The translations under genes and the position numbers were made by a program. Positions 1 to 2,216 of a DNA stretch of 2,216 bases are shown in pieces. Origin of the DNA: Escherichia coli (lineage in GTDB: Bacteria > Pseudomonadota > Gammaproteobacteria > Enterobacterales > Enterobacteriaceae); the NCBI RefSeq assembly GCF_003334305.1, contig NZ_QOWS01000056.1, one strand, 5' to 3'. A model generated the notes under the pieces. It made no database searches and was not told the origin of the DNA. It saw nothing but the letters and a program-made list of their open reading frames with translations. Position 1 is the stretch's first letter. Every line of letters begins with the position of its first letter.

Positions 1-33
1 AGAAATATGTTCCATCAATTTTTTAAGTTCCAT
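1..33 (-). CDS. First 11 codons ([11 protein letters not shown]) of a further H-rpt transposase ORF that runs leftward out of the window; unknown whether it is full-length or another truncated copy
   Basis: Positions 1..44 are identical to 381..424 and 761..804, including the ATG (31-33) and the Shine-Dalgarno (38-44). Confidence 0.4.
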   Translation of the reverse strand, partial: MELKKLMEHIS

Positions 34-158
34 TTGTTCACCTTATTTATGTAAGGAGTATTTGATCATGTATAAGCAATAAAAAACAGCTTCAGGTAAT
101 GAGGAATATCTCAATTTTTAAACATAAAATGCGAATTATTTAGTACAAAAAAGTAGCG

Positions 159-413
159 TTACGTGATCTTTCCCTGGGATACAACTCTGGCAATGGTATC
201 GTGAACAGGAATACCATTTTCAAAATCACCATATTGCTTCAAAAAATCGAGATGTGTTTCCCCGAAATCCTCTATATCTTCCCAACCTTCTGCACCAGAA
301 ATAACGGCACAAATAGTCAACAGTAGAATATCTGACAATTTATGCACCACTTTCCAGGCTTGTCTGTAATCGGGGGTAATAGAAATATGTTCCATCAATT
401 TTTTAAGTTCCAT
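159..413 (-). CDS. Truncated ISAs1-family (H-repeat-associated) transposase, N-terminal fragment, 84 aa; second identical copy created by the tandem duplication
   Basis: Nucleotide sequence identical to 539..793 (the 380-bp unit is repeated exactly). Same Shine-Dalgarno and start context. Confidence 0.8.
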
Positions 414-417
414 TTGT

Positions 418-424
418 TCACCTT
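418..424 (-). promoter_or_regulatory. Shine-Dalgarno (AAGGTGA) for the H-rpt ORF starting at 413
   Basis: Identical to 798-804; 4-nt spacer to the ATG. Confidence 0.5.
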
Positions 425-538
425 ATTTATGTAAGGAGTATTTGATCATGTATAAGCAATAAAAAACAGCTTCAGGTAATGAGGAATATCTCAATTTTTA
501 AACATAAAATGCGAATTATTTAGTACAAAAAAGTAGCG

Positions 539-793
539 TTACGTGATCTTTCCCTGGGATACAACTCTGGCAATGGTATCGTGAACAGGAATACCATTTT
601 CAAAATCACCATATTGCTTCAAAAAATCGAGATGTGTTTCCCCGAAATCCTCTATATCTTCCCAACCTTCTGCACCAGAAATAACGGCACAAATAGTCAA
701 CAGTAGAATATCTGACAATTTATGCACCACTTTCCAGGCTTGTCTGTAATCGGGGGTAATAGAAATATGTTCCATCAATTTTTTAAGTTCCAT
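539..793 (-). CDS. Truncated ISAs1-family (H-repeat-associated, H-rpt) transposase, N-terminal fragment only, 84 aa; probably non-functional as a transposase
   Basis: Residues 1-79 ([79 protein letters not shown]) match, from memory, the N-terminus of E. coli H-repeat proteins (YhhI/YdcC-like, about 378 aa). The ORF then ends after 5 unrelated codons (QGKIT-stop), so the DDE catalytic region is absent. An AAGGTGA Shine-Dalgarno lies 4 nt upstream of the ATG. It resembles my recollection of the 84-aa YbfQ (unverified). Confidence 0.8.
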
Positions 794-797
794 TTGT

Positions 798-804
798 TCA
801 CCTT
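798..804 (-). promoter_or_regulatory. Shine-Dalgarno (AAGGTGA) for the H-rpt ORF starting at 793
   Basis: Minus strand reads ataAAGGTGAacaaATG. Identical elements at 418-424 and 38-44. Confidence 0.5.
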
Positions 805-1018
805 ATTTATGTAAGGAGTATTTGATCATGTATAAGCTATGAAAAACAGCTTTAGACAATAAGTAGTATCTCAATTGTTGAACTTAAAATTCGAATTATT
901 TAGTACAAAAAAGTAGCGTTACGTGATCTTTCCCTGCAAATGGAACGCAAAATAAACACCTATTCCATGAGTTATATAATTTTTCACAATGATTAATTTG
1001 TTTTCTCAGGAAGAGATT

Positions 1019-1588
1019 TTATTTCTCTTCACTACGAATTAGTTCATGCTGTATCTTTATTAAACATTCGTAAGACTCATTTTTGTTCGGGAGATGTGCT
1101 GTCATTCGAGCATAAGTTGGTTTCTCATCTTTAAAATATTTTACCATGATTGAATTATCAAGGACTGCCAACAACTGAACTGGATCACTGCTCTTTTTTT
1201 GATAGATACCCGCTCTTATATAACTTCTAAACCGATCGCCGAGAAACGCCGTTTTTTCTGCTGTATTTATCAACTCCTGCAACGTTCCTTTGATGGCATG
1301 ATTTTCATTAAGGCGTAGTGACCCGACGCGAATTAAGAGTCTCGCCCCGCTTGGTGTGAATTTATTATTTTTACATGTACCCAGTTCTGTTTGCCAATAA
1401 TACTCACCGATGTCCTCATTCTGATACCATCTCCACATGGCTTTATTATTTAAGACAGGAAACGCGGAAAAAATAGTACCCTTAGCGAAAATAGTAAAAC
1501 AATCATGATCTTTAGCTTGTATTTCGCAATCAGCTATAACACCAAAACTAACAAATATCATCAGCAAAAAGAACAAAACTCTTTTCAT
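1019..1588 (-). CDS. Candidate Rhs immunity protein, secreted/periplasmic (N-terminal signal peptide), 189 aa
   Basis: Intact 189-aa ORF whose ATG (1586-1588) overlaps the toxin stop TGA (1585-1587) as ATGA. A GAGG Shine-Dalgarno lies 9 nt upstream. The N-terminus [24 protein letters not shown] has basic residues, a hydrophobic core and a small-residue cleavage region. The gene is AT-rich (about 30 percent GC in a sampled stretch). Immunity role is inferred from position and coupling only. Length and signal peptide resemble my recollection of E. coli YbfC (unverified). Confidence 0.7.
1532..1588 (-). other. Predicted Sec signal peptide (residues 1-19) of the 189-aa ORF
   Basis: [19 protein letters not shown] followed by DCEIQ. 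No canonical lipobox (Asp precedes the Cys), so signal peptidase I cleavage is more likely than lipoprotein processing. Confidence 0.55.
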
Positions 1589-2216
1589 TTTCTTATTCCT
1601 CTCGATGTTCTCTGTTTCATTTTAGCTAAAATTTCACCCAAATCATCTATCCCTGCTGTTGCTGGCCCATCGGGTTTATTAATGTCTGGGAATAAATAGG
1701 GTTCTGCACAAGTATATCCTGGTGGTAATTGAGTTGTTGGCCAATTTGTCTGTGGCAGGTAATCACTTGCTGTCTTTGTATCCATCCCTGGATACTGGGA
1801 ATCATCCTGTGGCGTACAAGTCAGATTTGGTTTTACCCACTTCCTGCAATACAGTGTGTAGTCGTAAGGGCTTAATACTCTGAAGAATGTTTTGAAAACA
1901 TTAGGCGCACTACTGGCCTGGTCAATAGGATATGGCAGTCTTAATTGTTTCGCTATGTCCGGCAATTTACTTGGATCGGGCGTAGGCGGTTTGTTGGGTC
2001 TCGCTCCATATCCGCCATTATTTAAGTGTCCATATTTTGATGCCAGTCCCATTGAATCTATATACTGAACCGGATTCAGCGGATACTGATAAAAATTCCA
2101 TCCCCCCTTCAGCCCAATCGGATCCTGAGTGATATACCTCCCCTGCAGCGGGTCATAATAGCGGTGGCGGTTGTAATACAGGCCGGACTCCTCATCATAC
2201 TGCTGCCCCGGCAGCC
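1585..2216 (-). CDS. Rhs-family polymorphic toxin, 3' portion: end of the conserved Rhs core fused to a variable C-terminal (toxin) domain; 5' end lies beyond the window
   Basis: Minus-strand translation of 2214..2044 gives [57 protein letters not shown] with no stop codon back to the window edge. This is the hallmark C-terminal end of Rhs/YD-repeat cores (established knowledge). The frame continues uninterrupted to TGA at 1585-1587. The supplied ORF (1585..2052) begins at an internal Met only because the true start is outside the window. Confidence 0.85.
1588..2043 (-). other. Variable Rhs C-terminal domain (Rhs-CT, candidate toxin), 152 aa, activity unassigned
   Basis: Sequence immediately after the demarcation motif: [50 protein letters not shown]...[22 protein letters not shown]. 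Pro-rich with 3 Cys. I see no recognisable nuclease, deaminase or other catalytic motif by eye. Position after the core demarcation is where polymorphic toxin domains sit (established knowledge). Confidence 0.6.
1597..1602 (-). promoter_or_regulatory. Shine-Dalgarno (AGAGGA) for the 189-aa ORF, embedded in the 3' end of the toxin CDS
   Basis: Minus strand reads cgAGAGGAataagaaaATG, with 9-nt spacing from GAGG to the ATG. Confidence 0.5.
2044..2216 (-). other. Conserved C-terminal segment of the Rhs core, including the core/CT demarcation motif region
   Basis: Contains DPIGL followed 21 residues later by [10 protein letters not shown], a PxxxxD-x-GL demarcation motif. The segment is markedly GC-rich (about 59 percent by hand count of 2101-2216) compared with everything downstream. 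Confidence 0.8.

Follow-up and report, generated by a model that had tools for sequence, protein, structure and literature searches.

How does a transposase gene that breaks off after its 79th codon come to encode a complete, stop-terminated protein, and why is that protein encoded twice in succession? The question is raised by a stretch of 2,216 nucleotides of Escherichia coli DNA (the window, hereafter), in which two tandem open reading frames of 84 codons begin like the transposase of an H-rpt element and finish with five residues, QGKIT, that lie beyond the end of the homology. An initial annotation, made from the DNA letters and their translations, attributed frame and tail to a duplication breakpoint within the transposase gene, and speculated that the product could regulate full-length H-rpt transposases elsewhere.

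Genomic Context and Layout of the Window

In a megablast search of 5,426 complete E. coli genomes, the window was matched collinearly and in one piece, at 99.5% identity, by K-12 substr. GM4792. Read against that genome, the window represents the E. coli RhsC locus on its reverse strand. In GM4792 the annotated genes run rhsC, ybfB, ybfO (an orphan Rhs tip), ybfC, a pair of truncated pseudogenes labelled "ISAs1 family transposase" (one of them ybfQ), ybfL (a full-length H-rpt pseudogene), ybfD and ybgA. Unique DNA beside the H-rpt array was 98–99% identical between strains by megablast. The features of the window are as follows.

1..176, minus strand: start of the full-length H-rpt copy C2 (ybfL in K-12), comprising its first 176 nt with left inverted repeat, leader and codons 1–11 (window 33 to 1), collinear with GM4792 and with MG1655 ybfL
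177..556, minus strand: H-rpt partial copy C1b, the extra copy and a hybrid, with a leader of C2 type and a coding part of C1 type
557..936, minus strand: H-rpt partial copy C1a, element nt 1–381 (380 bp here), with left inverted repeat, 143-nt leader and transposase codons 1–79
157..176, minus strand: left terminal inverted repeat of C2, from which ybfQ copy 2 takes its tail and its stop; junction at 176/177
537..556, minus strand: left terminal inverted repeat of C1b (CAGGGAAAGATCACGTAACG), in frame the Q G K I T stop of ybfQ copy 1; junction at 556/557, H-rpt nt 1 to nt 381
917..936, minus strand: left terminal inverted repeat of C1a, where the H-rpt array ends on its outer side; ybfC-side flank from 937
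539..793, minus strand: ybfQ copy 1, an 84-aa frame of 79 transposase codons plus QGKIT and stop
159..413, minus strand: ybfQ copy 2, an 84-aa frame identical to copy 1
817..845, minus strand: sigma-70 promoter TTTTCA-17-AATACT in the outer leader, an exact match in the window
799..804, and also 419–424 and 39–44, minus strand: Shine-Dalgarno sequence AAGGTG, 5 nt before ATG
1019..1588, minus strand: ybfC, 189 aa, a context gene downstream of the orphan Rhs tip
1585..2216, minus strand: 3′ part of the orphan Rhs core-extension/tip (ybfO in K-12), which contains a DPIGLKGG motif and runs off the window

TRF detected a single tandem array (window 1–936, period 380 bp, 2.5 copies, 97% matches). 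Positions 1–380 and 381–760 are identical units placed head-to-tail, and the outer partial unit (761–936) departs from the inner ones at 12 positions, all of them within window 838–891, that is, element nt 46–99. Beyond these differences, the 45 nt at 892–936 are identical to 132–176 and to 512–556, and homology between inner and outer copies ends exactly at 176/177, 556/557 and 936/937. The outermost copy, C1a, is 92% identical to nt 1–381 of H-rptB and has one difference from H-rptC1 of MG1655, with an unrelated flank from position 937 onward. RhsC-linked tandem copies named H-rptC1, C2 and C3 were reportedly described by Zhao et al. in 1993.

On the side of the array that faces the Rhs genes, the DPIGLKGG motif of the orphan tip is taken by us to mark the end of the Rhs core. 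The tip has a unique tail of about 175 aa, and its stop codon overlaps the start of ybfC by 4 nt (ATGA). YbfC (189 aa) has a hydrophobic N-terminus and no NCBIfam family match, and the ybfO tip and ybfC together look like a toxin-tip/immunity-type pair. A sigma-70-like match, TAAACA-16-TATAAT (10/12; window 953–980, plus strand), lies in the spacer between ybfC and H-rpt, faces the 3′ end of ybfC in antisense and is a match by consensus only. No RNA family was found when the whole window was scanned against Rfam at E ≤ 0.1.

Identity of the 84-Residue Frame

Both frames, which begin with MELKK, agree residue-for-residue, QGKIT tail included, with the translation of MG1655 b4514 (ybfQ), which is annotated as "inactive transposase YbfQ" and occupies, as a single copy, the same position after ybfC in the RhsC locus. 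An exact-sequence look-up placed the 84-aa protein on at least 998 contigs, with "Inactive transposase YbfQ" and the Swiss-Prot entry YBFQ_ECOLI among its names. By this identity, the frame is the known E. coli gene ybfQ, downstream of rhsC, ybfO and ybfC and already catalogued. The tail, which had been called novel, is the annotated end of the K-12 protein. The difference from MG1655 is one of number: a single ybfQ is present there, whereas the window has two in tandem, as GM4792 does, and its inner leaders carry strain-specific SNPs.

What the initial annotation stated about the missing part was accurate. It placed the end of transposase homology at VVS and gave CISPAKF as the continuation in H-rpt proteins; YhhI, an intact K-12 paralogue, reads VVSCISPAKF and runs on to 378 aa, and the homology of YbfQ to it ends after Ser79. 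Full-length H-rpt proteins therefore continue past residue 79, and full-length relatives among the best 150 of 29,902 representatives at E ≤ 0.001 measure about 363–404 aa. The search for complete copies elsewhere in the genome, which had been proposed as a check, yielded intact 378-aa transposase genes in K-12, namely yhhI at RhsB and ydcC at RhsE. The frame was also correctly described as intact and provided with a ribosome binding site, since AAGGTG lies 5 nt before the ATG in both copies.

At about codons 50–60, both ybfQ copies contain a hairpin with a trailing T-run (TCGGGGAAACACATCTCGA TTTTTTGAAG) that resembles a terminator (window 247–265 and 627–645, minus strand). These hairpins were considered as terminators and rejected: the stem is weak (6 pairs, 3 of them G-C) and lies within coding sequence, and the match is probably due to chance.

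Source of the C-Terminal Tail

The bounds of the H-rpt element were set by comparing the RhsB-linked (yhhI), RhsE-linked (ydcC) and RhsC copies and noting where matching stops. The RhsB and RhsE copies have exactly 1291 bp in common, at 97.9% identity, between flanks that are unrelated to each other. The element so delimited starts with CAGGGAAAGATCA, ends with TAATCTT(G/T)CCCTG and has imperfect terminal inverted repeats; in C2, the left and right terminal repeats (CAGGGAAAGAT.ACG) match at 14 of the first 15 positions. Relatives carry the PGAP name "ISAs1-like element ISEc1 family transposase".

Window positions 936, 556 and 176 each coincide with nt 1 of the left terminal inverted repeat of this element. 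The repeat unit thus corresponds to H-rpt nt 1–381, reduced to 380 bp in the window by a 1-nt deletion in the leader, and the units are 92–95% identical to nt 1–381 of H-rptB. They have the same terminal repeat, leader, ribosome binding site and N-terminal coding region as the Rhs-linked H-rpt/ISEc1 elements of the ISAs1 family. However, complete elements are about 1291 bp long with both terminal repeats, whereas the window units are fragments of the first 380 bp, without the DDE catalytic domain, and the third copy runs off the window.

At the junction, H-rpt nt 381 (codon 79) is joined to nt 1 of a neighboring copy (GTTGTATCC/CAGGGAAAGATCACGTAA), where intact copies read GTATCC/TGTATCAGTCC. 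The neighboring unit contributes the final five codons and the stop, CAG GGA AAG ATC ACG TAA (window 176 to 159). Judged by the bounds set above, the next H-rpt/ISEc1 element (ISAs1 family) provides QGKIT and the stop from its left terminal inverted repeat (CAGGGAAAGATCACGTAA), the supposed "leader". It had been rightly stated that the breakpoint lies within the transposase coding sequence and that tail and stop are supplied by the next unit, identity ending at the three boundaries given above. The description of the donated DNA as upstream non-coding sequence holds for its origin in the neighboring unit and needs revision for its nature, which is that of the left terminal inverted repeat of a 1291-bp element. 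No target-site duplication or other direct footprint of transposition was visible at the junction, and H-rpt transposition has not been observed experimentally (PMC3032704).

Age and Distribution of the Junction

An 80-nt probe across the junction (window 137–216) was compared with the 5426 complete E. coli genomes. The junction was present in 2440 of them (45%), at 2447 places, with 2330 records at 99% identity or more, and was absent from the other 55%. It occurred once per genome, except in at most seven genomes with two places each. One of the 2447 matches sits on a plasmid and not on a chromosome. A query of 1100 nt for two-copy genomes was matched collinearly in one piece in GM4792 only, its coverage being undiagnostic for copy number because overlapping pieces get joined.

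The K-12 array consists of C1 (nt 1–381), C2 (complete) and C3 (nt 25–913 plus 1225–1291, with an internal deletion of nt 914–1224). C1 and C2 differ at 21 of 380 positions (5.5%), and each of them differs from C3 at 24 positions over nt 25–381. The distance of C1 and of C2 from the RhsB copy (31 differences in 381 for each) is in a range similar to that between C1 and C2 themselves. Since the junction links copies that are 5.5% apart and is present as a single copy in 45% of genomes, it predates the extra copy found in the window. Taken across these copies and genomes, the join of nt 381 to nt 1 is an old, widespread one between long-diverged copies, located at a precise IS terminus.

These observations bear directly on the explanation that was offered first, in which a local tandem duplication of 380 bp, with random breakpoints in the transposase gene and in its upstream leader, made both the frame and the tail. 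Such a duplication would account for the array, which is a perfect head-to-tail repeat of 380 bp, and the second stub in the window truly is a duplication product. However, the copies joined at the junction differ at 21/380 positions, and the occurrence of the junction as a single copy in 45% of genomes makes it older than the duplication in the window. In addition, the supposed leader breakpoint falls exactly on nt 1 of an IS terminal repeat, for which the chance would be roughly 1 in several hundred. The tandem duplication thus did not create the breakpoint, and a random duplication, which we regard as very improbable, is largely refuted as the origin of the primary junction.

The opposite end of C2 is also informative. 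In MG1655 (locus positions 9972/9973), and in the same array of GM4792, the right end of C2 (CCCTG) adjoins nt 25 of C3 (ybfD). With its right end on nt 25 of C3 and its left end on nt 381 of C1, C2 therefore has both ends in the form of precise IS termini joined to the interiors of neighboring copies. Strain GE3 has no ybfQ and carries a single H-rpt after ybfC (nt 1–913 plus 1225–1291; positions 5279–6255 of the reverse-complemented locus), the first 381 nt of which are of C1 type with one difference from MG1655 C1. This arrangement is either the ancestral state or the result of a recombinational deletion between C1 and C3, with the exchange in nt 309–381.

Another head-to-tail pair of H-rpt-type elements is found in the RhsE region of MG1655. 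Here, yncI (5587–6640), a far more diverged ISAs1-type pseudogene with 74–84% identity in patches, lies upstream of ydcC and about 33 nt from the left end of H-rptE.

Proposed Origin of the Junction

We consider it quite probable that ybfQ is a dead-end H-rpt transposase stub, in which C1 was cut at nt 381 and fused to the C2 terminus by a transposase-type end event, and that the second stub was added by unequal crossing-over. C1 is cut after element nt 381 (codon 79) and fused straight to C2 (ybfL) at nt 1 of its left terminal inverted repeat, and this repeat, read in the frame of C1, gives QGKIT and the stop. The precise IS terminus at the join, together with the 5.5% distance between the copies, makes an IS-end event the most likely source, rather than a random local duplication. 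Two candidate events can be envisaged: the end of one copy may have been inserted into a neighboring copy, or an IS end may have mediated an adjacent deletion in a tandem array. In view of the flanks of C2 (nt 1–381 on one side and nt 25–913 on the other), a simple insertion would not suffice and several steps would be needed. As the join has no target duplication and H-rpt transposition is unobserved (PMC3032704), we infer the transposase-mediated origin from the coincidence with the IS terminus.

A simple insertion of C2 into one ancestral H-rpt was examined as a candidate and rejected. The right flank starts at nt 25 and not at nt ~382, there is no short direct repeat, and C1 and C3 differ at 24 positions.

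Once joined, C1 and the first 380 bp of C2 form a direct repeat of 380 bp. Unequal homologous crossing-over within that repeat, between element nt ~100 and ~182, then added the second stub, a step that is shown by the middle copy being a hybrid.

Origin of the Second Stub

Copy C1b of the window differs from C1a at 12 positions, confined to element nt 46–99, and from the C2 leader (window 1–176) at none, whereas its coding part is of C1 type at the sites that separate C1 from C2 in K-12. The middle copy of GM4792 differs from C1 only at nt 46–81 and from C2 only at nt 182–363. Both middle copies can thus be described by a single switch point within a shared identical stretch. The extra copy is a left-C2/right-C1 hybrid, the expected product of unequal homologous crossing-over with an exchange between nt ~100 and ~182, an interval for which K-12 C2 serves as proxy in the source strain because its own C2 lies outside the window beyond nt 176. 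As a case of copy-number change in a tandem repeat by unequal homologous crossing-over, the middle copy is as predicted and has nothing unusual.

The hybrids of GM4792 and of the window carry strain-specific leader SNPs (element positions 76, 84, 96 and 99), which points either to independent events or to concerted evolution of the copies. The event that generates the second stub is rare and seems to have happened more than once. Of two laboratory derivatives of K-12, GM4792 has two copies of ybfQ and MG1655 has one; the 380-bp repeat can therefore change in number on laboratory time-scales, or else one of the two assemblies is wrong.

The latter option has a counterpart for the window, where the second stub could be an assembly artifact produced by a cycle in the repeat graph, running through the ~80 bp common to C1 and C2 and traversed once too often. 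Two junctions are found in only about 7 of the 2440 junction-bearing genomes. No difference separates C1 from C2 in the stretch from element nt ~100 to ~182, enough for a cycle in a short-read graph, and such a path would yield exactly this hybrid copy. However, the same hybrid is predicted by unequal crossover, the same architecture is present in the finished K-12 genome GM4792, and the hybrid of each strain carries its own leader SNPs. An artifact is on balance unlikely, and unequal crossing-over is our preferred explanation of the second stub.

Domain Content and Predicted Structure

Pfam assigns residues 8–80 of YbfQ to DDE_Tnp_1_assoc with E = 4.4e-27, so that YbfQ is not a chance open reading frame. 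The match covers model positions 2–74 of 88, compared to 2–88 in YhhI. The frame had been described as the N-terminal DDE_Tnp_1_assoc part of the transposase, which is borne out by the Pfam hit with the reservation that the domain is incomplete. The catalytic domain DDE_Tnp_1 was not found in YbfQ by Pfam. YhhI has all the attributes of an ISAs1-family transposase (about 378 aa, an N-terminal and a DDE domain, and a score at or above the cut-off), with 412 bits for NCBIfam NF033564 (ISAs1 family). YbfQ falls outside the family so defined, reaching 65.1 bits, below the cut-off of 70, over profile positions 1–51 of 314.

When the N-terminal 119 aa were used in a word-indexed search, the homologues returned were all close fragments from E. 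coli, E. fergusonii and Salmonella (84–100% identity), too shallow a set for a deep alignment; the search of representatives was used instead. The AlphaFold2 model of YhhI, built with a 104-sequence alignment, had a pLDDT of 94.7 and a pTM of 0.92. Its N-terminal helices comprise residues 3–10, 26–38, 44–53, 55–59, 71–79 and 83–97, and the catalytic fold begins at residue 105. The best structural match of the model was Tn5 transposase (Foldseek E = 1e-9, TM ~0.5), and a PDB sequence search with YhhI found no relatives.

The break in YbfQ at residue 79/80 lies inside the Pfam domain and removes predicted helix 83–97, in which W93 is nearly invariant among the 104 aligned relatives. YbfQ therefore has neither the catalytic domain nor any C-terminal multimerization region, and is missing part of the N-terminal domain.

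Expression and Possible Function

The promoter TTTTCA-17-AATACT (window 845 to 817) was listed by Shimada et al. (PMC3946193) as a constitutive RpoD promoter directed at ybfQ. The stub thus keeps the element's own promoter and ribosome binding site and may therefore be expressed. The inner leaders (437–465 and 57–85, minus strand) read TTTTTA-17-AATACT, with a weaker −35, whereas the K-12 C2 leader keeps the C. Transcription of the second stub and of ybfL may differ from that of the first stub. It was recently reported that C. elegans fed on a Keio ΔybfQ strain shows altered radiotolerance, an effect that could be complemented with a plasmid (PMC12655312, 2025). That report is silent on the transposase nature of ybfQ, and it is given little weight here.

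The initial annotation's suggestion that the fragment could act on full-length transposases invites comparison with IS1 InsA, IS911 OrfA and Tn5 Inh. Like these, YbfQ is a short protein with a transposase N-terminus and the element's own expression signals. InsA, OrfA and Inh are made by active elements through frameshifting or alternative starts, have a complete binding/dimerization domain and are demonstrated inhibitors. IS1 InsA and IS911 OrfA retain intact binding domains, and the natural Tn5 inhibitor is an N-terminally deleted form that retains the dimerization domain. In contrast, YbfQ is the product of a rearrangement and has a truncated domain. Where a regulator of the InsA/OrfA/Inh type has a complete DNA-binding/multimerization domain, the Pfam match of YbfQ is cut at 74 of 88 and helix 83–97 is predicted to be lost, five helices remaining; a regulatory role is speculative.

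Stated in full, such a role would make YbfQ a functional trans-acting regulator that binds H-rpt ends or the promoter, and represses or competes with YhhI and YdcC in the way of InsA or OrfA. Several observations are consistent with it. At least 998 contigs carry the ybfQ frame intact, and 2440 genomes have the junction at its 3′ end in near-identical form; alongside ybfQ, K-12 encodes intact H-rpt transposases of 378 aa; ybfQ has a ribosome binding site and a promoter bound by RpoD holoenzyme in vitro (PMC3946193); and a ΔybfQ phenotype has been reported (PMC12655312). However, the idea is weakened by the break, which cuts inside the N-terminal domain and takes away helix 83–97 and the conserved W93. 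The fold is Tn5-like, and the natural inhibitor of that system is an N-terminally deleted form and not an N-terminal fragment. Conservation of ybfQ is not above that of the neighboring DNA (98–99%), which gives no sign of selection, and the junction is missing in 55% of genomes. Moreover, H-rpt transposition has never been detected (PMC3032704). A literature search found no report of YbfQ inhibiting or repressing its cognate transposase in trans; searches gave irrelevant matches only for b4514 and none for ISAs1 with H-repeat.

We regard the regulator as highly improbable. A related proposition is that YbfQ is produced and has effects in trans, whether by competing with YhhI and YdcC for H-rpt ends or repressing them, or by an unrelated cellular route of the kind hinted at by the ΔybfQ phenotype, its dose being tuned by the copy number that unequal crossover sets; we regard this, too, as highly improbable. 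YbfQ is most likely an inactive by-product, "inactive" being the term used by Swiss-Prot and in the annotation.

Implications

The window is an ordinary ybfQ locus with a rare second copy, and its reading frame and tail were already known. For annotation, such stubs are best recorded as fragmentary pseudogenes of ISAs1-family transposases, and any tandem copies call for a check for misassembly. If YbfQ did regulate H-rpt transposases, this might help explain why H-rpt transposition goes unseen, but nothing here points in that direction. YbfQ owes its odd C-terminal tail to the neighboring H-rpt copy, whose terminal inverted repeat is read in frame, and this tidies the reading of a long-annotated K-12 locus. 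The 380-bp repeat that the proposed IS-end join would have created appears to expand occasionally via unequal crossover.
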